A stretch of 64,000 nt of DNA from Escherichia phage vB_VIPECOMC06: sequence record PQ416618.1; one strand, written 5' to 3'. The notes beneath the pieces were generated by a model that was not told the origin of the DNA, did not search any database, and saw only the letters and a list, made by a program, of their open reading frames with translations. Of the stretch, positions 5,382 to 47,029 are shown piece by piece. Both the position numbers and the translations under genes were made by a program. Position 1 is the stretch's first letter. Each line of letters begins with the position of its first letter.

Positions 5382-5402
5382 GGCCTATACTTAGGCCTAT
5401 TT
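5381..5402 (+). terminator. stem-loop, putative terminator after IPIII-like gene
   Basis: AGGCCTA-TACT-TAGGCCT perfect 7-bp stem followed by ATTT. Confidence 0.4.
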
Positions 5403-5419
5403 ACATTTAAAGGACACAT

Positions 5420-5749
5420 ATGAAAACATATCAAGAGTTTATCACTGAAGTTACATTATCTGCGGAACAGAAAGCTGCTATCGAAGAAGGTAAAAATCCC
5501 AAAGTAACATATAAAGTAAATAGTAAAGGCGTTTTTGATGGCTTGGTTCAAGACCCTGAATTGAAAAAAGCTCTTTCTAAAACTAATGCGTACTTTGCTC
5601 CTAAATTTAACACAGCCGGTGTACTTATTGGATTGGATGTATTCAACTCTAAAGGTGTTCTATCTAGTGCCTTTGGTTATGCCGCTAACAAAATTACCAA
5701 AGCCGCATGGGAATCCAATACCAAACAAGCTCAAAAGCCTAGAGTATAA
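5420..5749 (+). CDS. internal protein (109 aa)
   Basis: N-terminus MKTYQEFITE. Confidence 0.7.
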   Translation: MKTYQEFITEVTLSAEQKAAIEEGKNPKVTYKVNSKGVFDGLVQDPELKKALSKTNAYFAPKFNTAGVLIGLDVFNSKGVLSSAFGYAANKITKAAWESNTKQAQKPRV

Positions 5750-6462: not shown

Positions 6463-6767
6463 TGACAACTATTGAAGTTTTTGAGTATTGTTATAACAGC
6501 CCAGTATGCAATAAAAGGGCTCTTGTAGAAAATTATGAGATTTATCATTTTAAACCTAAACGATATCGTTTGACTAAAGGTCCGTTCGCAGGGCAGCAGG
6601 TTCTTTGTACTGCTCCTAATGCACGGTTGATGACTAGTATTCCGCATTTCAAAATGGAATTTATTGATGGGCCGTTTAAGGGATTAATCACTCAAAGTTT
6701 AATGGCGTTTAATTCCGACCCATTTTTGATTAAAGAAAAATCTTGGATAAATTTATTTTCTAATTGA
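6459..6767 (+). CDS. hypothetical protein (102 aa)
   Basis: ATGA start/stop overlap with upstream gene. Confidence 0.4.
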   Translation: MMTTIEVFEYCYNSPVCNKRALVENYEIYHFKPKRYRLTKGPFAGQQVLCTAPNARLMTSIPHFKMEFIDGPFKGLITQSLMAFNSDPFLIKEKSWINLFSN

Positions 6768-6773
6768 GGTTAT

Positions 6774-7136
6774 ATGAAAGCATATCAAATTCTTGAAGGC
6801 ACGCATAAAGGTACTATTTATTTTGAAGACGGTATTCAAGCACGAATTATTGTCTCTAAAACTTTTAAAGAAGACGCTATTGTAGACCCGGAAATTTTCT
6901 ACGGTTTGAATGCTCGTGAAATTGAAATTGAACATCAACCTAAAGTTAAAATTGAAGGTGGTCAACACCTGAACGTTAACGTTCTGCGTCGCGAAACTCT
7001 GGAAGATGCAGTTAAGCATCCAGAAAAATATCCACAGCTGACCATCCGTGTATCTGGTTATGCAGTTCGCTTTAACTCTCTGACTCCAGAACAGCAGCGC
7101 GACGTTATCGCTCGTACCTTTACTGAGAGTCTATAA
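6774..7136 (+). CDS. autonomous glycyl-radical cofactor (GrcA/YfiD-like)
   Basis: C-terminal glycyl radical motif [25 protein letters not shown]; ~120 aa as in GrcA and T4 Y06I. Confidence 0.8.
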
Positions 7137-7360
7137 TGGCTAAATTGATTATAGAAGGGTCTGAAGATGTTTTAAAATGTTTTGCCGCCTGGTTTAGTTG
7201 CTCAGGCGAGCAATCATTCATTGAAGCATTTAGAACGGGTGATATTACTGGAAAATATCCGTCAACCGATATCACTGTACGCGGATATGGTATTAATGAG
7301 CCTATCCAATTGGTCGAATATGACCTTGCCACCGATGAGGAAATTCCTTATGTCGATTGA
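7136..7360 (+). CDS. hypothetical protein (74 aa)
   Basis: Start overlaps upstream stop (TAATG). Confidence 0.4.
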   Translation: MAKLIIEGSEDVLKCFAAWFSCSGEQSFIEAFRTGDITGKYPSTDITVRGYGINEPIQLVEYDLATDEEIPYVD

Positions 7361-7892: not shown

Positions 7893-8351
7893 ATGACTAT
7901 CAATTCTGACGTTTTTATCCGCCGTAATAAACTCCGTCGAATCTTTGAAACGGAGTTCCGCAAAATAAATGCCGGTATAAAAGATGCTGCAAAGTCTCTT
8001 GGAATACCAGGCTTTCATATCAAGTATTCTCAACATCTCTTAGATCGTGCTATCCAGAGAGAAATAGATGAGAACTACGTTTTTGAATTATTTCGTAAAG
8101 TAAAAAATCATGTTAAAGAAGTTGCAGAATTTTTATCAATGCCGGCACGTCCAGATGTTGATGAAGATTTTGTCGAAGGTGTTGAATATCGCCCAGGCCG
8201 TTTAGAAATAACTGACGGAAATCTTTGGTTAGGACTTACAGTTTGTCGCGAAAATCCAGCATTCAAAATGAAGACTCTTCAATGCAGAATGGCTATTATT
8301 AACAGTAAACGACTACCAGGAAAAGCTTCTAAAGCAGTGATTAAAATCTAG
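7893..8351 (+). CDS. regB: RegB-like sequence-specific endoribonuclease
   Basis: MTINSDVFIRRNKLRR...HLLDRAIQREIDE...EYRPGRLEITDGNLWLG resembles T4 RegB as recalled; size ~152 aa; correct locus between denV and tk. Confidence 0.7.
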   Translation: MTINSDVFIRRNKLRRIFETEFRKINAGIKDAAKSLGIPGFHIKYSQHLLDRAIQREIDENYVFELFRKVKNHVKEVAEFLSMPARPDVDEDFVEGVEYRPGRLEITDGNLWLGLTVCRENPAFKMKTLQCRMAIINSKRLPGKASKAVIKI

Positions 8352-11967: not shown

Positions 11968-12183
11968 ATGTTATATGACCCAAGCGGTTGTTCTGAAGAT
12001 GGTGTGATTGTTCTGGAGCCTGAGCATCCAGTTGGTGATGTATATCGCACCGTTGAAGTATGCGAATGTAATTTCGTTGAAGGTAATACTGGCGGAATTT
12101 CCATTGAGCAAGATGATGATGTTATTTACCTGGATGCAAGCCAAGTAGAAGCTCTTTATAACATTTTAAAACATAATCGGTAG
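11968..12183 (+). CDS. hypothetical protein (~71 aa), member of tandem paralog pair
   Basis: Starts MLYDPSGCSEDGVIVLEPE; SD GAGGAAA. Confidence 0.4.
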   Translation: MLYDPSGCSEDGVIVLEPEHPVGDVYRTVEVCECNFVEGNTGGISIEQDDDVIYLDASQVEALYNILKHNR

Positions 12184-12221
12184 TTTACGTCTTGGTAGGA
12201 CTATGATATAGTAATCCTACC
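12183..12221 (+). promoter_or_regulatory. early promoter with flanking inverted repeat (PeSL-like)
   Basis: GTTTAC, TGATATAGT; GGTAGGACTA / TAATCCTACC arms. Confidence 0.55.
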
Positions 12222-12528
12222 AAAACAAATGGAGAACAAAATGAAACTTTTGCTTATCGCTTATGTTGTAGTACAATACAATTATCCGATGTTTACTTAT
12301 AACATGGTAAACGGCATAGTGAATCTTATTGAAACGAGTATGGTAAAATGACCCGTGAACAAGCTAATAAATTGATGGACCTTATCCATGACTTACGTGA
12401 AGCCGATTCAGATTTGAATGATGTAGCTTATCACGCGGTAAATGATAACGGAGACTTTTATGAAAATCAGGTTGATGCTTGCCAGAATGCTTTGGTGAAT
12501 TTTGTTGAAACTTTAATTGGTGAATAAT

Positions 12529-13059
12529 ATGAAAACTGTAATTGAAACGACCGAACTGTTCGGTGATTTGACTATCGAAAAACGTGGTAATGTATACGTT
12601 CTGACTCAGGAAGATGATGGTATTACTATTTGTCCTATGGAACTAGACGAGATTTTGAAACTCAATCCGCCTGGTCATGCATCGGCAATTAATATTGGTG
12701 GAGACCTTCAGGCTCGTTTTTATCATGGGCTTTATAACGGTGCTAATATCGAAACTGAAGACAAATGCCTTTCTATCGATAACTGGAAAACATTCGTTGC
12801 TAAGGTGAAAGAATTCTTGGAATCCGAACCACCTGAAAAGGCTAAACTTAAATGGGGTATCAGTCGTGGTGCTTACATTATTAATCCAATAGCTCCAAAC
12901 TATACCACGACTTTGGCTGTCATGAATTCTTATGAAGATGGTGATGTAGTAACTATTCGCCAAAATGATGATTTACGTTCACATGTTACTACATTTACCA
13001 AAGACGAAGCTGTAGCTCTTAAAGCTTATCTCGATTCCATTATCCCAACTTTGAAATAA
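12529..13059 (+). CDS. hypothetical protein (~176 aa)
   Basis: ATG at 12529 (track start is a TTG). Confidence 0.5.
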   Translation: MKTVIETTELFGDLTIEKRGNVYVLTQEDDGITICPMELDEILKLNPPGHASAINIGGDLQARFYHGLYNGANIETEDKCLSIDNWKTFVAKVKEFLESEPPEKAKLKWGISRGAYIINPIAPNYTTTLAVMNSYEDGDVVTIRQNDDLRSHVTTFTKDEAVALKAYLDSIIPTLK

Positions 13060-13068
13060 GGAATTATT

Positions 13069-13542
13069 ATGATTATCAATGAAAACTCTTGGCACTTTAA
13101 AATTTATGCCGCGTTCAATAGTACATGGAATCGTCCGAAAACGTTGTGTGTTTATTTTTGGAAAACGTTAATCCCGGTATTGGCTGTTTCAATTATTGGA
13201 TTTGCTATTTTAGCCGCAGTCACAATTATTGGCCAGGAATTTTTAACTAGATTCTTTGTTTTTAGTAGTCTATGGACATTAGTTCCGGCCTCAATTGGCG
13301 TAGGCATTTTAATGGTAGCAGTCATGGCTTTTATTGCTGCCGGGGCGGTAATTGGTCCGTCTTGGTTGTTAGACAAATATAACGACAGAAAATATTATAA
13401 AGAAATTGAGCTCATTGCGCAAAACCAAGAACGAATTAAAAATGGACTTGAACCTATTGAACGTAAGAAATCATTAATAGGTGAATACCTTAAAGCTCGT
13501 AAAGAAAAAGTCTGTCCTACTCTTGAATATAAGGCTAAATGA
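13069..13542 (+). CDS. predicted membrane protein (157 aa)
   Basis: Three hydrophobic helices; C-terminal charged tail. Confidence 0.5.
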   Translation: MIINENSWHFKIYAAFNSTWNRPKTLCVYFWKTLIPVLAVSIIGFAILAAVTIIGQEFLTRFFVFSSLWTLVPASIGVGILMVAVMAFIAAGAVIGPSWLLDKYNDRKYYKEIELIAQNQERIKNGLEPIERKKSLIGEYLKARKEKVCPTLEYKAK

Positions 13543-22262: not shown

Positions 22263-22736
22263 ATGTTATTATCAGGCGCAAAATATAAAGAAGAAAAACA
22301 AAAATTTTATGATGCACAGAATGGTAAGTGTCCTATTTGCCACCGTGAATTAGACCCTGATGTTCAAGGTAACCATCTTGACCACGACCACGAATTAAAC
22401 GGGCCAAAAGCAGGTAGAGTTCGTGGGTTACTCTGTAATCTGTGCAACGCAGCAGAAGGCCAAATGAAGCATAAGTTCAACCGTTCGGGTCTTAAAGGAC
22501 GTGATGTCGACTACCTCGAATGGCTTGAAGCTCTTCTTGCTTATTTGAAACAAGATTATTCTGATAATAATATCCATCCTAATTTTGTTCCAGACAAAAC
22601 TAAAGAGTTCTCAAGACTAGGTAAAGAGGAAATGATGGCCGAGATGCTTCAAAGAGGATTTGAATATAATGAATCTGATACTAAAACACAATTAATAGCT
22701 TCATTCAAAAAGCAGCTTAGAAAGAGTTTAAAATGA
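22263..22736 (+). CDS. 49: endonuclease VII (Holliday junction resolvase)
   Basis: MLLSGAKYKEEKQKFYDAQNGKCPIC..HLDHDHELNGPKAG..RGLLCNLCN; 157 aa as in T4 gp49. Confidence 0.9.
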   Translation: MLLSGAKYKEEKQKFYDAQNGKCPICHRELDPDVQGNHLDHDHELNGPKAGRVRGLLCNLCNAAEGQMKHKFNRSGLKGRDVDYLEWLEALLAYLKQDYSDNNIHPNFVPDKTKEFSRLGKEEMMAEMLQRGFEYNESDTKTQLIASFKKQLRKSLK

Positions 22737-24550
22737 AAATTGAAAAAGAAATTGAAGGATTAATTCATAAAACTAATAAAGATCTTTTGAACGAGAATGC
22801 TAATAAAGATTCTCGTGTTTTTCCAACTCAACGGGACCTTATGGCTGGTATTGTGTCTAAGCACATTGCCAAAAATATGGTCCCGTCTTTTATTATGAAA
22901 GCACATGAAAGCGGAATTATCCATTTCCATGATATTGATTATTCCCCTGCTCTTCCATTTACTAATTGTTGTTTAGTAGATTTAAAGGGAATGCTTGAAA
23001 ATGGGTTTAAGCTAGGTAATGCTCAAATTGAAACGCCTAAATCTATCGGTGTTGCTACTGCAATTATGGCACAAATTACCGCACAGGTTGCTTCCCATCA
23101 ATATGGCGGAACGACTTTTGCTAATGTAGATAAAGTACTTTCTCCTTATGTTAAACGCACCTATGCAAAACATATTGAGGATGCAGAAAAATGGCAAATC
23201 GCTGATGCGTTGAATTATGCCCAATCTAAAACAGAAAAAGACGTATACGATGCATTTCAAGCTTATGAGTATGAAGTAAATACTCTTTTTAGCTCAAACG
23301 GTCAAACGCCTTTTGTAACAATTACATTTGGTACTGGAACTGACTGGACTGAACGAATTATTCAGAAGGCAATTCTTAAAAACCGCATTAAAGGCCTTGG
23401 TCGTGATGGAATAACTCCTATTTTCCCTAAACTTGTTATGTTCGTTGAAGAGGGTGTCAATCTTTATAAAGACGACCCGAACTACGATATTAAGCAGCTT
23501 GCTCTAGAGTGTGCAAGCAAAAGAATGTATCCTGATATTATTTCAGTTAAGAACAATAAAGCTATCACCGGTTCATCTATTCCTGTTTCTCCAATGGGTT
23601 GTCGTAGTTTCTTGAGTGTATGGAAAGATTCGACAGGTAATGAAATTCTTGATGGGCGTAATAATCTTGGTGTTGTAACACTGAATCTTCCTCGTATTGC
23701 GTTAGATTCTTATATTGGAACACAGTTCAATGAACAAAAATTTACTGAATTGTTCAATGAGCGAATGGATCTGTGTTTTGAAGCATTGATGTGTAGAATT
23801 AGTTCCTTAAAAGGAGTTAAAGCTACTGTTGCTCCTATTCTTTACCAAGAAGGTGCATTTGGGGTCCGTCTTAAACCTGATGATGATATAATTGAGTTAT
23901 TTAAAAACGGTAGAAGTTCAGTGTCCTTAGGATACATTGGAATTCACGAATTGAATATTCTTGTCGGACGTGATATTGGACAGGAAATTTTGACTAAAAT
24001 GAATGCTCGTCTTAAGCAGTGGACTGAAAGAACCGGTTTTGCTTTTAGCTTGTATTCTACTCCTGCTGAAAACCTGTGCTATCGATTCTGTAAACTTGAT
24101 ACTGAGAAATATGGAAGGGTAAAAGATGTTACTGATAAAGGCTGGTACACTAATAGTTTCCACGTTTCGGTAGAAGAAAATATTACTCCGTTTGAAAAGA
24201 TTTCTCGCGAAGCCCCATATCATTTCATTGCGACTGGCGGACACATTTCTTATGTTGAACTTCCTGATATGAAAAATAACCTAAAAGGTCTTGAGGCTGT
24301 CTGGGATTATGCTGCGCAACATTTAGATTATTTTGGTGTTAATATGCCGGTAGATAAATGTTTTACGTGTGGAAGTACTCATGAAATGACTCCTACTGAA
24401 AACGGATTTGTTTGTTCTATTTGTGGAGAAACTGATCCTAAAAAGATGAACACAATAAGAAGAACTTGTGGTTATTTGGGAAATCCGAATGAACGCGGAT
24501 TTAATCTCGGCAAAAATAAAGAAATCATGCATAGGGTTAAACACCAATGA
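22733..24550 (+). CDS. nrdD: anaerobic ribonucleoside-triphosphate reductase (class III)
   Basis: 605 aa; C-terminal Zn ribbon CFTCGS..CSICG and glycyl radical motif RRTCGYLG; uninterrupted (no intron). Confidence 0.95.
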   Translation: MKIEKEIEGLIHKTNKDLLNENANKDSRVFPTQRDLMAGIVSKHIAKNMVPSFIMKAHESGIIHFHDIDYSPALPFTNCCLVDLKGMLENGFKLGNAQIETPKSIGVATAIMAQITAQVASHQYGGTTFANVDKVLSPYVKRTYAKHIEDAEKWQIADALNYAQSKTEKDVYDAFQAYEYEVNTLFSSNGQTPFVTITFGTGTDWTERIIQKAILKNRIKGLGRDGITPIFPKLVMFVEEGVNLYKDDPNYDIKQLALECASKRMYPDIISVKNNKAITGSSIPVSPMGCRSFLSVWKDSTGNEILDGRNNLGVVTLNLPRIALDSYIGTQFNEQKFTELFNERMDLCFEALMCRISSLKGVKATVAPILYQEGAFGVRLKPDDDIIELFKNGRSSVSLGYIGIHELNILVGRDIGQEILTKMNARLKQWTERTGFAFSLYSTPAENLCYRFCKLDTEKYGRVKDVTDKGWYTNSFHVSVEENITPFEKISREAPYHFIATGGHISYVELPDMKNNLKGLEAVWDYAAQHLDYFGVNMPVDKCFTCGSTHEMTPTENGFVCSICGETDPKKMNTIRRTCGYLGNPNERGFNLGKNKEIMHRVKHQ

Positions 24551-25017
24551 ATTATGATAGATTTTATCCTTGCGATTTTGTGAATGGCCCTGGTTGCAGG
24601 GTCGTTCTTTTCGTTACAGGTTGTTTGCATAAATGCGAAGGGTGTTATAATAAATCAACATGGAACGCTAGAAATGGTATTCCATTCACGGGTGAAACAC
24701 TAGAGCAATTAATTGAATGTTTGAATAATGATTATATAGAAGGATTAACTATAACTGGAGGAGACCCTCTCTATCCTGATAACCGAGATGATGTTCATTG
24801 CATTGCTCAAACAGTAAAAAATCTTTATCCCAATAAAAGCATTTGGTTGTGGACAGGGTACAAGTTTGAAGATATTAAACAACTAGAAATGCTTAAATAT
24901 GTTGATGTTATTATTGATGGGAAGTATGAGAAAAATCTTCCGACTAAAAAGCTGTGGCGAGGATCAGATAATCAGCGACTTTGGTCAAATACCGATGGGG
25001 TGTGGAAACATGATTAA
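24547..25017 (+). CDS. nrdG: anaerobic RNR activating enzyme (radical SAM)
   Basis: N-terminal Cys-rich radical-SAM-type region (FVTGCLHKCEGCYNK); ATGA coupled to nrdD. Confidence 0.9.
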   Translation: MNYDRFYPCDFVNGPGCRVVLFVTGCLHKCEGCYNKSTWNARNGIPFTGETLEQLIECLNNDYIEGLTITGGDPLYPDNRDDVHCIAQTVKNLYPNKSIWLWTGYKFEDIKQLEMLKYVDVIIDGKYEKNLPTKKLWRGSDNQRLWSNTDGVWKHD

Positions 25018-42157: not shown

Positions 42158-43318
42158 ATGAATACCTTTAAAATCGGAACGAATTTTGATTTAGCTCTTC
42201 TTGATAAAATCGTAGAGCTCAATAAAACTTATCCTAATAGCTTGATAAACGAAGTATACGGCTCTACAAGAGAAATGGCTTTTGTAGCAGCCAGACCTGA
42301 TTTTAGGCTTCCTGACGTTGACAAAAAGATGTTAGAAGATTACGTTAAACGTTGTAACGAATTAGGTATTTGCTTTAACTATACACTCAACACGATAAAT
42401 CCTGGTTCAAAAAGAGAACTAGTTGAGTGGAAGAAGAAAGCTATTCAGGATTATGTTCAGTATCTTTGGTCAATAGGCGTATGGCGTATTACTATCGCTA
42501 ACCCTGTTGTTATGGAAATTGTTCGTGAAGTCAATAAAGACATTGAGATTGAAGTTTCAACAATTCTACATGTCGATGCTGTAACTCAAATCAAATACTT
42601 GCATGACCAGTATAATATCAAAAAGGTCTGCTGTGGAATTCATAAGAACCGTTCAGTTTCTTTCCTGAAGCGTGCAGCAGAGTTTTGCAATAAGAACAAT
42701 ATAATATTTGAAGTTCTTGTAAATGAGTTCTGTTCTAATGCTGGTAAAGGGTATACAACACATTGTAGTTATCGTGACTCTTGCTATATTTTCCATAGCA
42801 CCGATGTTACAGTAGATGATGCCAAATCCTTAAATGGATATCCAATGCAACACTGCATTAAAGCTCGTGATACAGACCCATTTAACTGGTTGAGAACTCG
42901 TTTTGTTCGTCCTCAAGATTTGAAACTTTATAATGATATTGGTATCACTCAATTTAAAGTTTCTGGACGTACAGGTAGCACCGACTACATTTTGAAAGTT
43001 CTTGAAGCTTATGCTTCTGAAAAGTTTGAAGGTAATTTGTTAGAACTGTGGAAGCCTTTAGAGACTATTTTCACTCTTGAAAACGAAACTGAGTTTTCAC
43101 ATACGGTAAATATTGAAACCTCTTTGTTAGATGGCTTTTTAGAAAAAAGGTGGTTCAAACATCCAGATTTCGATTGTGCTAATGAAATCTGTGGGACGAC
43201 GTGTACATATTGTGAAAGATATTATAAACGTCAGTTATCTAAAAACGGGTTATCAGAAAATTCTATATCTATTATTGATATAACTAACTCTGATGACGCT
43301 TTGAGGTACCCAGAATGA
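42158..43318 (+). CDS. Cys-rich enzyme of unknown function (386 aa)
   Basis: Cys cluster EFCSNAGKGYTTHCSYRDSC and C-terminal CANEICGTTCTYC; weak resemblance to the TIM-barrel peptidase-U32 (RlhA/UbiU) pattern; part of the sugar-nucleotide cassette. Confidence 0.55.
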   Translation: MNTFKIGTNFDLALLDKIVELNKTYPNSLINEVYGSTREMAFVAARPDFRLPDVDKKMLEDYVKRCNELGICFNYTLNTINPGSKRELVEWKKKAIQDYVQYLWSIGVWRITIANPVVMEIVREVNKDIEIEVSTILHVDAVTQIKYLHDQYNIKKVCCGIHKNRSVSFLKRAAEFCNKNNIIFEVLVNEFCSNAGKGYTTHCSYRDSCYIFHSTDVTVDDAKSLNGYPMQHCIKARDTDPFNWLRTRFVRPQDLKLYNDIGITQFKVSGRTGSTDYILKVLEAYASEKFEGNLLELWKPLETIFTLENETEFSHTVNIETSLLDGFLEKRWFKHPDFDCANEICGTTCTYCERYYKRQLSKNGLSENSISIIDITNSDDALRYPE

Positions 43319-43591: not shown

Positions 43592-44308
43592 ATGGGAAAA
43601 CATAACACAATGAAATATATTAAAGCCGCAGATTTTCAATCCGCATTTAAAGCAGTCAATCGTGAAATTTTAGAAAACCCGGAATTCGTAACTGATTCTC
43701 GTATTGGACGTTGTAATGAAATTGGGTCTATGACAGTAGTTGTTGACACTCCATCTTCATTCAAAATGACCGATCCACGTATTAACCGCATCTCTTATGA
43801 ATATGCTGAAGATTTCTGGAAGTTTATGATTTCTGGTGGTACTGATGCAGAAGAAGCATTTAAGGCATATCCTAACGTTGCTAAATTTATTTCTAAACCT
43901 AAATCAGACGCTTTGCCTGCAAACTTCAACACTTTCTATGGTCCACGAATTGCGGCCCAGTTACCAGCTCTTTTAAAAGAACTTAAAGAGAAACCTAACT
44001 CCCGAAGAGTTGTGTTCCAAATTCTTGAAAGTTCAGATCAGGCTTTGCTTGATTCAGACGAAACACTTGAATATCCATGTACTGACTCAGTGACTTATTA
44101 TATTCGTGATGGTAAGCTTTATACCCACTGTCATATGCGTTCACAGAACTGTGCTGTTGTTATGCAGTTGGATTTTTATCTCCAAGGAAAATTACTTCAT
44201 TATATCGCTAAAGAATGTGGTGTAGAAGTTGGTGATTATACTCATACCATGGTAAGTGCCCATGTGTTTGAACGTGATTTTGATTATGTTAAAGGATTCC
44301 TTGACTAA
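43592..44308 (+). CDS. 42: thymidylate-synthase-fold pyrimidine hydroxymethylase (dCMP hydroxymethylase-like)
   Basis: TS-family pattern NSRR, catalytic Cys in YPCTDSVTYYIRDGK, MRSQN; position of gene 42 between 43 and uvsX; N-terminal half differs from T4 gp42 as recalled. Confidence 0.6.
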   Translation: MGKHNTMKYIKAADFQSAFKAVNREILENPEFVTDSRIGRCNEIGSMTVVVDTPSSFKMTDPRINRISYEYAEDFWKFMISGGTDAEEAFKAYPNVAKFISKPKSDALPANFNTFYGPRIAAQLPALLKELKEKPNSRRVVFQILESSDQALLDSDETLEYPCTDSVTYYIRDGKLYTHCHMRSQNCAVVMQLDFYLQGKLLHYIAKECGVEVGDYTHTMVSAHVFERDFDYVKGFLD

Positions 44309-45207
44309 TGGCTATTTTCCGCGTACCTATCTTGAGTATGCGGTCTTATGAAACTGGACAGTATGCTATCCTTAAGGATGGCAACTTCCAACTTCATTTG
44401 CACCGTGCTAATCCAGGTGATGTGATTACATATCCACGTAATGCATCTGATATTAAAGAATGCGAACGTCTTTTCCCAGAATTTAAGTTTGTTCCATTAT
44501 GGTATAAAGATAACGCGTATAACACTCGTAAATATTTCTGGTCTGAAAATGAATTTGTGGTTGATTCATTAATTGATTATTATGATTGTGATTTTCTAAT
44601 CACAGATATCACTGGATATGACGGCGCTTTTGATGTGGAATTCAATTTCAATATCACTGCAGACCCTAATAAACCACGTTTTTATATTGACGAATTCTTA
44701 AAAACCGACATGTTGTCTGTTAATCGTTCACTTCAAACTACTGTGTTGAATGAACGTCAAAAAGAAGTGCTGGTTAACGCAGGTGCAGATGGTAATAAGA
44801 TTATCGTAACCCAGAAAGTTATACGTCCTTCCATCATGCAGCGTCTTGTAGGTGATTTGGCTCCTATTCATCTAGATGGTATTTTTCATCCATTTCGAAT
44901 TAGTGACCCATGCTATCGTTTTGAACAAGTGGTTGAATGCGCAATTCAATTAGGCCAACCGCTTTATATAACCGATCCAAATAATAGCTTCGACAGAAAT
45001 AAGTATCCTGAAGAAGCGCTGATTCGAATTTTTAATCCAACTAAAACTGAGTACTATCAAATTCTTAAAGGACGTCCGAAGATTCAATATTTCGAAAATC
45101 CTGAAGAAGTATTCCATCCAGGTCTTGGTGAGTTCATCTACTTTAATGCTTTAATTTCTTCGCCGTATAATATACCTAAATATGAAGATGTCGTAATCGA
45201 GGAATAA
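44308..45207 (+). CDS. hypothetical protein in the beta-gt slot (299 aa); candidate DNA sugar transferase
   Basis: TAATG-coupled to gene 42; occupies the locus where T4 has beta-glucosyltransferase; no motif recognised. Confidence 0.5.
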   Translation: MAIFRVPILSMRSYETGQYAILKDGNFQLHLHRANPGDVITYPRNASDIKECERLFPEFKFVPLWYKDNAYNTRKYFWSENEFVVDSLIDYYDCDFLITDITGYDGAFDVEFNFNITADPNKPRFYIDEFLKTDMLSVNRSLQTTVLNERQKEVLVNAGADGNKIIVTQKVIRPSIMQRLVGDLAPIHLDGIFHPFRISDPCYRFEQVVECAIQLGQPLYITDPNNSFDRNKYPEEALIRIFNPTKTEYYQILKGRPKIQYFENPEEVFHPGLGEFIYFNALISSPYNIPKYEDVVIEE

Positions 45208-45208
45208 A

Positions 45209-45757
45209 ATGGCTAAAATTATTTTAGTAGATGGCCCGGATAATGCCGGTAAAACAACTTTCATTAATGACATAATGGAAATTAGTGAAAGATATGTAAA
45301 GATTGATTTCCCTAAACGAACAGTTGATGGACGTTTCGATGTTAAGTCTCGAAATGAAGTTGGCTGTTTCGAAACGATGTTGAATTATTTAGACCCTACT
45401 AAGATTTATCTGTTAGACCGTGGATATATTAGTAACTGGGTTTATGGACGTATTCGACAAGATGCGGACTCGGTTCTTGACGTTTATGAACAGGATTATG
45501 TTCGTCTTTGCCAAAACCATGATGTGTTCACAATTATTTTAACACGTAACGAAATGACTGAAAGTTTTGAAGACGACCTTATTACTTTGTCTTCATTCGG
45601 TTTTAATACAGTCATTTCATATTTTGAAGAGTTTGCAATTCATAACAAAATTCAAACGTATCAATTACTTAATCATGATGGTGCTAACAAAGTTATAGGA
45701 TTTAATGCAAGCGAACGTAATAATTTGATTACAGAAATTATCAAATGGGCTCGTTAA
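45209..45757 (+). CDS. P-loop nucleoside/nucleotide kinase-like protein (182 aa)
   Basis: Walker A ILVDGPDNAGKTT, LLDRGY; resembles dNK/TMK-type kinases, not T4 gp1. Confidence 0.55.
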   Translation: MAKIILVDGPDNAGKTTFINDIMEISERYVKIDFPKRTVDGRFDVKSRNEVGCFETMLNYLDPTKIYLLDRGYISNWVYGRIRQDADSVLDVYEQDYVRLCQNHDVFTIILTRNEMTESFEDDLITLSSFGFNTVISYFEEFAIHNKIQTYQLLNHDGANKVIGFNASERNNLITEIIKWAR

Positions 45758-45856
45758 GAGCCTGTTTAAAGTTTTAAATGCTGTATAACCGTTAGTATAT
45801 AATCGTCTTATCTTTTAAACATGAGTAAAATATAATGATGCCTATGGAAAAATACA

Positions 45857-47029
45857 ATGTCTGATTTAAAATCTCGTCTGATTAAAGCTTCTACTTCTAA
45901 AATGACTGCAGACTTGACTAAGTCTAAGCTGTTTAATAATCGTGATGAAGTCCCTACTCGTATTCCGATGTTGAATATTGCATTAGGTGGTGCACTGAAT
46001 GCCGGGTTGCAATCAGGCTTAACTATTTTTGCTGCTCCTTCTAAACACTTTAAAACGTTGTTTGGACTGACCATGGTTGCAGCGTATATGAAGAAATATA
46101 AAGATGCAATTTGTTTGTTCTATGATTCAGAATTTGGTGCTTCAGAATCTTATTTTCGTTCAATGGGTGTTGATTTAGACCGTGTAGTTCATACCCCGAT
46201 TCAATCTGTCGAACAACTTAAAGTTGATATGACTAATCAGCTTGACGCGATTGAACGCGGTGATAAAGTTATTATCTTTATCGATTCAATCGGTAATACT
46301 GCATCTAAGAAAGAAACCGAAGATGCGTTGAACGAGAAAGTTGTAGGTGATATGTCTCGTGCTAAGGCACTTAAATCTCTGTTCCGCATTGTGACTCCTT
46401 ATCTGACTATTAAAGATATTCCATGTGTTGCAATCAACCACACAGCAATGGAAATCGGCGGACTATATCCTAAAGAGATTATGGGTGGTGGTACAGGTAT
46501 TCTTTACTCTGCTAACACTGTGTTCTTTATCTCTAAACGTCAGGTTAAAGAAGGTACAGAATTGACTGGTTATGACTTCACACTGAAAGCAGAAAAATCT
46601 CGTACAGTTAAAGAGAAATCTACTTTCCCGATCACGGTTAATTTTGATGGCGGTATTGACCCATTCAGTGGCTTGTTAGAAATGGCAACTGAAATTGGTT
46701 TTGTAGTTAAGCCTAAAGCTGGTTGGTATGCTCGCGAATTCCTTGACGAAGAAACAGGCGAAATGATTCGTGAAGAAAAATCATGGCGTGCTAAAGCTAC
46801 TGATTGTGTAGAATTCTGGGGGCCGTTGTTTAAACATAAGCCTTTCCGTGACGCAATTGAAACTAAATATAAACTAGGTGCTATCTCTTCTATTAAAGAA
46901 GTTGATGATGCTGTTAACGACCTTATTAATTGCAAAGCAACAACTAAAGTTCCGGTTAAAACTTCTGATGCTCCGTCTGCAGCAGATATAGAAAACGACC
47001 TTGACGAAATGGAAGATTTCGATGAATAA
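45857..47029 (+). CDS. uvsX: RecA-like recombinase UvsX
   Basis: Walker A region FAAPSKHFKT, 390 aa, acidic C-terminus DLDEMEDFDE; order uvsX-40-41. Confidence 0.95.
   Translation: MSDLKSRLIKASTSKMTADLTKSKLFNNRDEVPTRIPMLNIALGGALNAGLQSGLTIFAAPSKHFKTLFGLTMVAAYMKKYKDAICLFYDSEFGASESYFRSMGVDLDRVVHTPIQSVEQLKVDMTNQLDAIERGDKVIIFIDSIGNTASKKETEDALNEKVVGDMSRAKALKSLFRIVTPYLTIKDIPCVAINHTAMEIGGLYPKEIMGGGTGILYSANTVFFISKRQVKEGTELTGYDFTLKAEKSRTVKEKSTFPITVNFDGGIDPFSGLLEMATEIGFVVKPKAGWYAREFLDEETGEMIREEKSWRAKATDCVEFWGPLFKHKPFRDAIETKYKLGAISSIKEVDDAVNDLINCKATTKVPVKTSDAPSAADIENDLDEMEDFDE

Follow-up and report, generated by a model that had tools for sequence, protein, structure and literature searches.

An RB69-type vs.6 gene very probably encoding a spare part for host PFL, with a radical half that appears recently overwritten by host grcA

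The vs.6 gene studied here lies in a 64-kb window, by which we mean the whole stretch of 64,000 nucleotides of Escherichia phage vB_VIPECOMC06 that was analysed. With high confidence, we read it as an RB69-type allele of the T-even gene vs.6, which codes for a spare part of PFL and in whose radical half host grcA sequence has recently replaced that of the phage, separately in phages of E. coli and of Klebsiella pneumoniae. The gene and its function are already known and the gene call adds nothing to them; an identical Vs.6 protein has an NCBI entry already, derived from a 168.5-kb contig. What is added here is the conversion patch, a modest evolutionary observation and possibly an unreported one.

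The open reading frame given by the first-pass annotation at 6774-7136, with its RVSGYAVRF motif, was confirmed. It codes for a protein of 120 aa and 13.8 kDa, with the motif at residues 92-100, and the Pfam model Gly_radical matches it at 2e-18 (67 bits, cut-off 22) over residues 60-101. Vs.6 is a stand-alone glycyl radical domain without a catalytic barrel, the Gly_radical model being matched in its last 42 positions only, and no second domain beside it was detected by Pfam. The NCBIfam model TIGR04365 (spare_glycyl) aligned with residues 20-120 at 158 bits (1.3e-46), 12 bits under its equivalog cut-off of 170 bits. This shortfall is explained by the divergent N-terminus, and we treat Vs.6 as what appears to be a phage subfamily of GrcA. 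We also considered whether an unrelated fusion partner makes up the N-terminal half and rejected this, because both phmmer and TIGR04365 align Vs.6 to GrcA from residue 20-22. The phage family phrog_1209 covers residues 1-120 (1e-62). PHROGs v4 labels this family "unknown function", though its T4 member was characterised in 2001.

The gene is tightly packed between its neighbours, vs.7 on the 5' side and vs.5 on the 3' side (Table 1). We found no promoter directly upstream of vs.6: a consensus scan gave 9 sites, against 9.4 in shuffled sequence, and none was well placed. As there is no convincing promoter at this position, vs.6 is probably read as part of a vs.8-vs.7-vs.6-vs.5 unit.

Table 1. 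Position of vs.6, its parts and other features of the window
Feature	Position	Strand	Remark
vs.7 stop TGA	6765-6767	+	
vs.6 ribosome-binding site GAGG	6766..6769	+	Overlaps the vs.7 stop; read from sequence
vs.6 ORF	6774..7136	+	ATG start, 120 codons; read from sequence
Phage-type N-terminal half, codons 1-60	6774..6953	+	AT-rich, GC3 0.18
Putative host-derived patch, codons 61-117	6954..7124	+	Glycyl radical domain; near-identity to E. coli grcA DNA
RVSGYAVRF glycyl-radical fingerprint, aa 92-100	7047..7073	+	Motif is that of GrcA and of the PflB Gly734 loop
Codon of radical glycine G95	7056-7058	+	
Phage-type 3' end GAG AGT CTA TAA	7125..7136	+	3' edge of the patch
vs.6 stop / vs.5 start overlap, TAATG	7134-7138	+	
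regB	7893-8351		Pfam REGB_T4 6.5e-69
Endonuclease VII	22263..22736		
nrdD, intact, 605 aa	22733..24550	+	Pfam NRDD 1e-170 plus Gly_radical
nrdD glycyl radical site RRTCGYLG, aa 576-583 (G580)	24458-24481	+	
nrdG, radical-SAM activase of NrdD	24547..25017	+	Pfam Fer4_12 1e-47 and Radical_SAM

RB69-like coliphages (genus Mosigvirus) share 97-98% identity with the window over the 3 kb around vs.6, and we assign the window to an RB69-like T-even phage of that genus. In RB69, the gene at the same position is vs.6 (RB69p120), which stands in the run vs.8-vs.7-vs.6-vs.5-vs.4-regB, and the arrangement in T4 is the same (vs.6 is T4p117). RefSeq names both products "autonomous glycyl radical cofactor GrcA", and the T4 protein is Y06I (UniProt P13316, GRCA_BPT4). 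The first-pass annotation was therefore right to see a GrcA/YfiD-like spare part analogous to T4 Y06I, and the relation is in fact closer, since Vs.6 is the Y06I orthologue with about 95% protein identity (97% to RB69 Vs.6).

Homologues of vs.6 were found in 1,588 phage records. The carriers are T4-like phages of Escherichia, Klebsiella, Enterobacter, Cronobacter, Citrobacter and Aeromonas, and also T5-like phages; an N-terminal pattern, MKAYQILEG...ARxIVSK, is common to T4-like phages of several genera. In Salmonella phage S16 (Gelderlandvirus), taken up as a possible third case of matching to the host, no vs.6, vs.7 or vs.5 was present in the piece examined (12100-13445), where regB and vs.8 are almost adjacent. 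As S16 is without vs.6, the spare part appears to be dispensable in some T-even lineages. A separate observation concerns the neighbour vs.5. The T4 form (58 aa; 5382-5558 of the T4 piece) diverges after about 17 residues from the form of 73-74 aa present in Sf21, RB69 and the window (7136-7360), and the T4 reference vs.5 looks like a frameshifted version.

To which enzyme the spare part belongs is indicated first by its likeness to host proteins. The last 60 residues of Vs.6 are identical to E. coli GrcA at all 60 positions, and this identity puts the identification as a spare part far beyond chance. The last 64 residues share 49 positions (77%) with PflB 696-759. The best PDB matches of Vs.6 were GrcA (6owr, 3e-42) and PFL (1h16, 2e-26), followed by other PFL-type enzymes. 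The peptide RVSGYAV is the one recognised by PFL-AE. PFL-AE activates both YfiD and T4 Y06I, and the two proteins then restore oxygen-cleaved PFL in vitro, according to the accounts given in PMC8683613 and PMC13450708 of the work of Knappe's group (Wagner et al. 2001, BBRC 285:456), and Y06I is one of only two experimentally validated spare-part proteins (PMC8683613). The first-pass annotation had regarded failure of activation by NrdG or PFL-AE as grounds for giving up the spare-part role; for the T4 orthologue, which PFL-AE activates, this point is already answered.

From these data, we propose how Vs.6 may act. After infection, host gene expression is shut down by the phage; host GrcA would then no longer be made, and Vs.6 would be supplied instead. 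The host activase PflA (PFL-AE) would take hydrogen from G95 in the RVSGYAV loop, as it does in vitro with the T4 orthologue. Where oxygen cleaves PflB at Gly734, radical-bearing Vs.6 would take up the position of the missing C-terminal domain and restore the conversion of pyruvate to acetyl-CoA and formate, a reconstitution achieved in vitro with the T4 orthologue. The presumed physiological benefit would be a fermentative ATP supply that is kept up in the micro-oxic gut during phage growth. Because the N-terminus of Vs.6 is divergent and that of YfiD matters for radical installation (PMC13450708), the activation kinetics of the Vs.6 protein of the window could differ from those of YfiD.

The divergent N-terminal half might also be taken as a sign that Vs.6 is a decoy or modulator, which soaks up PflA activity or SAM, or occupies PflB, and thereby redirects host fermentation. 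This half is unlike bacterial GrcA (47% DNA identity, with the protein alignment starting at residue 20), the YfiD N-terminus is known to affect radical installation (PMC13450708), and no in vivo phage phenotype was found in the literature searched. A decoy, however, would not need a radical domain identical to the functional one of the host, glycine included, and the T4 protein restores PFL activity in vitro, as recounted in PMC8683613. We consider a decoy scarcely credible and keep to the reading of Vs.6 as a PFL spare part.

At the DNA level, the two halves of vs.6 differ sharply in their relation to the host gene. Codons 1-60 agree with K-12 grcA at 85 of 180 positions (47%) and are essentially unrelated to it, whereas codons 61-117 agree at 167 of 171 (97.7%; Fisher p = 1e-29 against the 5' half). 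GC3 rises from 0.18 in the 5' half to 0.37 in the patch. When the whole 64-kb window was compared by megablast with 5,426 complete E. coli genomes, the sole match was 6952-7144, which hit grcA in every genome. The four differences between the patch of the window and K-12 (7022, 7034, 7055 and 7088) are all third-position changes of G>A or C>T, the direction in which host DNA would be expected to change as it approaches the base composition of the phage.

The patch ends before the gene does. The last three codons are GAG AGT CTA in the phage and GAA AGC CTG in K-12, with the amino acids unchanged, and GAG AGT CTA is common to the window, RB69 and the distant Klebsiella Slopekvirus 05F, which marks it as ancestral phage sequence. 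Capture of the 3' end of the host gene by illegitimate recombination was considered, but the phage-type final codons, which distant phages also have, led us to reject it. An internal patch that is phage-type on both sides points instead to homologous recombination with host DNA, that is gene conversion, and not to a fresh capture.

We then compared the patch (171 nt) of other phages and hosts with that of K-12 grcA. The number of differences was one in RB69, two in T4, three in Sf21, one to three in six T-even alleles from IMG/VR and four in the window. Other Escherichia (E. coli 319 and Escherichia sp. MOD1) differed at two or three sites, Citrobacter grcA at 14 and Salmonella grcA at 30. Judged by these counts, the divergence of the E. 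coli phage patches (1-3 in RB69, T4 and the IMG/VR alleles) appears to be the same as the variation within E. coli (2-3).

The patch also seems to be younger than the rest of the gene. RB69 and T4 differ at 18 of 180 positions in the 5' half and at 3 of 171 in the patch (p = 0.001), from which we infer that the patch postdates the split of the RB69 and T4 alleles. Exchange between phages may have contributed to the history of this region too. From the 3' end of vs.7 through vs.6 (6640-7130), identity of the window to T4 is 0.83-0.98, while the flanks are at 0.5-0.75. Between the window and T4, vs.6 has a dN of 0.024 and a dS of 0.23, and dS exceeds 1 in each of vs.7, vs.5 and regB. Selection on the gene is purifying, and the pattern suggests a recent exchange of the 6640-7130 cassette between Mosigvirus and Tequatrovirus as well.

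A corresponding patch was found in Klebsiella phages. In Jiaodavirus, a genus of Klebsiella T-even phages, the vs.6 patch matches K. pneumoniae grcA and has the same start, at codon 61. The patch of Jiaodavirus phage GF differs from K. pneumoniae grcA at 10 of 171 positions, and that of the Jiaodavirus-like genome IMGVR_UViG_2974754850 at 1 of 153, its 3' edge being at codon 111 and not 117. The K. pneumoniae reference for these comparisons was a single grcA allele, taken from a chromosome filed in a plasmid collection, and a K. aerogenes grcA record was left out of the comparison on account of an indel. Two further observations were made on these records. In IMGVR_UViG_2974754850, a one-base deletion in a T-run of the 5' half breaks the frame of vs.6 (401-760 of the piece); it is probably a sequencing error, though the gene could be a pseudogene. 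Whole chromosomes are filed as plasmids under CP125156.1 (K. pneumoniae, 5.37 Mb) and NZ_AP026896.1 (Aeromonas caviae, 4.94 Mb), and such entries are a trap for plasmid statistics.

Within the patch, grcA of E. coli and of K. pneumoniae differ at 20 sites, 16 of which lie in codons with unchanged amino acids. At these 20 sites, the E. coli phages have 19-20 E. coli states and the Klebsiella phages 16-18 Klebsiella states. Other lineages, among them Slopekvirus, Karamvirus, Pseudotevenvirus, Krischvirus, Aeromonas phages and T5-like phages, are separated by 25-48 differences in the 171 patch positions from each of the host sequences available. Because these lineages are so far from all hosts, the phage gene must be old and the patches recent. 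Host grcA would thus have replaced the vs.6 radical domain on at least two independent occasions, although the shared 5' junction could mean fewer events and later spread from phage to phage. We lean, with no great margin of confidence, to the view that recurrent host-to-phage gene conversion keeps the radical half matched to the host of each lineage, with the same codon-61 5' junction in both.

Could the near-identity to grcA arise without conversion, either as an assembly artefact from host reads or through extreme constraint on a sequence captured long ago? Host DNA does contaminate phage preparations, and the amino acids of the domain are almost invariant from Haemophilus to E. coli. An artefact would not account for the patch in T4, RB69 and Sf21 or in six independent IMG/VR genomes, where phage-type codons always flank it in frame and it has lineage-specific changes; this recurrence in independently sequenced genomes, together with those changes, excludes it. 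Constraint on the protein, for its part, does not explain why each phage group matches its own host when 16 of the 20 sites at which E. coli and K. pneumoniae differ are in synonymous codons, nor why other phage lineages, in which the protein is equally constrained, are 25-48 of 171 positions away from every host. We therefore regard this explanation as extremely unlikely, and gene conversion by host grcA remains the preferred reading of the patch.

The window also contains an intact nrdD with its own glycyl radical site, RRTCGYLG (G580), and the first-pass annotation, which correctly placed vs.6 about 16 kb upstream of it (15,597 bases lie between the two genes, with nrdG also downstream), had left open whether host PFL or NrdD is served. 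When the window was scanned for a possible second activase, the CxxxCxxC motif of nrdG was located at 24622, and the only other match in a long plus-strand ORF is at 43190. With nrdD and nrdG both intact in the phage, and with NrdD subject to the same oxygen cleavage, Vs.6 might be a spare part for phage (or host) NrdD, activated by NrdG and replacing the radical domain lost at G580. Nucleotide metabolism was proposed by Nolan et al. 2006 from a Pfam match alone (PMC1524935), and spare parts of non-PFL glycyl radical enzymes have not been conclusively looked for, according to a 2026 review (PMC13450708). There are also genomic arrangements in favour: in Aeromonas phage 65, vs.6 (460-822 of the piece) stands between nrdG and nrdC/nrdH, inside the nrd cluster, and T5-like phages have both a grcA-like gene and nrdD.

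The sequences themselves speak against NrdD as the partner. BLASTP of Vs.6 against the NrdD of the window gave only E = 2.7, with the glycine sites unaligned, and no NrdD chain was among the PDB matches of Vs.6 at E <= 0.01. The similarity is absent from the loops too (RVSGYAVRF versus RRTCGYLG), and the Cys-rich segment that NrdD has just before its glycine loop (CFTCG...CSICG) is lacking in Vs.6, which thus has neither of the features, Cys-rich segment and RRTCGYLG, that mark the radical domain of class III ribonucleotide reductases. Moreover, the radical domain of Vs.6 is identical to host GrcA and has repeatedly been replaced by host grcA sequence, and the only sensible reading of such replacement is that the partner is a host protein which GrcA already fits.

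Gene occurrence and position give no sign of a coupling either. NrdG was found in 2,266 phage records and vs.6 in 1,588; many Vibrio, Felix-O1-like and Gram-positive phages carry NrdG, and the vs.6 search gave few or no records there. T5-like phages carry a vs.6-like gene, and none of them was among the 60 NrdG (tblastn) matches listed. Co-occurrence of vs.6, nrdD and nrdG nevertheless discriminates poorly, because T5-like phages carry nrdD too. No link between vs.6 and nrdD was found within the window, where 15.6 kb lie between the genes; in T4 and RB69, vs.6 is 16-18 kb from the nrd cluster, as against its place within the cluster in Aeromonas phage 65. In the T5-like Escherichia phage DT57C, we noticed a grcA-like gene (24577-24945) beside tRNA genes, with nrdD at 44074-45900. 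Its product has a more PflB-like C-terminus (a …TRTFTQ-type ending). No nrdG is annotated beside the DT57C nrdD, which implies that the GrcA-like protein and NrdD would both depend on host activases.

Taken together, the identities to GrcA (60/60) and PflB (49/64), the want of any likeness to NrdD and the biochemistry of Y06I largely settle the question in favour of PFL. An NrdD role is kept as very unlikely, and the open choice of the first-pass annotation was too generous to it. The GrcA identity and the absent NrdD likeness thus offer a sequence-based answer to the recurring question of whether vs.6 serves nucleotide metabolism.

T-even phages contain hydroxymethylcytosine and degrade host DNA. 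A host-matched patch in their genomes would mean that they exchange DNA with the host chromosome in nature, and the patch could serve as a natural marker of the frequency and recency of such exchange. If true, this would be a clean and datable case of a strictly lytic, host-DNA-degrading phage that repeatedly recombines with the host chromosome. Selection for a spare part exactly like that of the host may lie behind this matching. We found no description of the grcA patch in the literature searched; the T4 genome review and Wagner et al. 2001 lay outside it, and an earlier mention is possible. There is a practical side as well, in that a 2026 paper puts grcA forward as the conserved marker gene for detecting E. 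coli Straboviridae by qPCR (PMC12845203). If its primers lay in the 3' half of the gene, they would match every E. coli genome too, and E. coli DNA could give false positives.

Compared with known systems, Vs.6 of the window stands closest to T4 Vs.6/Y06I (P13316) and RB69 Vs.6 (NP_861810), which are encoded at the same position, have the same length of 120 aa and share both the N-terminal half and the E. coli-like radical domain. T4 Vs.6 differs from it by six amino acids, all in the N-terminal half except R73H of T4, and four synonymous changes in the patch (G>A or C>T) are private to the window relative to T4 and RB69. We would expect no functional difference from these two proteins.

E. 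coli GrcA (YfiD; 6owr, TIGR04365) is the same kind of stand-alone glycyl radical domain of about 14 kDa, with the same RVSGYAV loop. Compared with it, Vs.6 is seven residues shorter and only distantly related in its N-terminal 60 residues, the first 20 or so of which are unaligned. Vs.6 is expressed from a phage transcription unit, whereas host grcA has its own promoter, which is oxygen- and acid-responsive. The C-terminal radical domain of PflB (1h16, 696-759) has the Gly734 loop in common with Vs.6 and is the part which the spare part replaces. As read from its sequence, Vs.6 has neither the PflB catalytic barrel nor Cys418/Cys419 and, from established knowledge of PFL, it should have no activity alone.

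For the patch, the nearest precedent is cyanophage psbA, a host-derived auxiliary metabolic gene of T4-like phages in which patches are exchanged with the host copy by intragenic recombination between host and phage (Sullivan et al. 2006, PMC1484495). Unlike in psbA, the vs.6 patch covers just one domain, begins at a fixed 5' edge and is a near-perfect match to the host species in two host genera, and the phages that carry it are hydroxymethylcytosine-containing, host-DNA-degrading coliphages.
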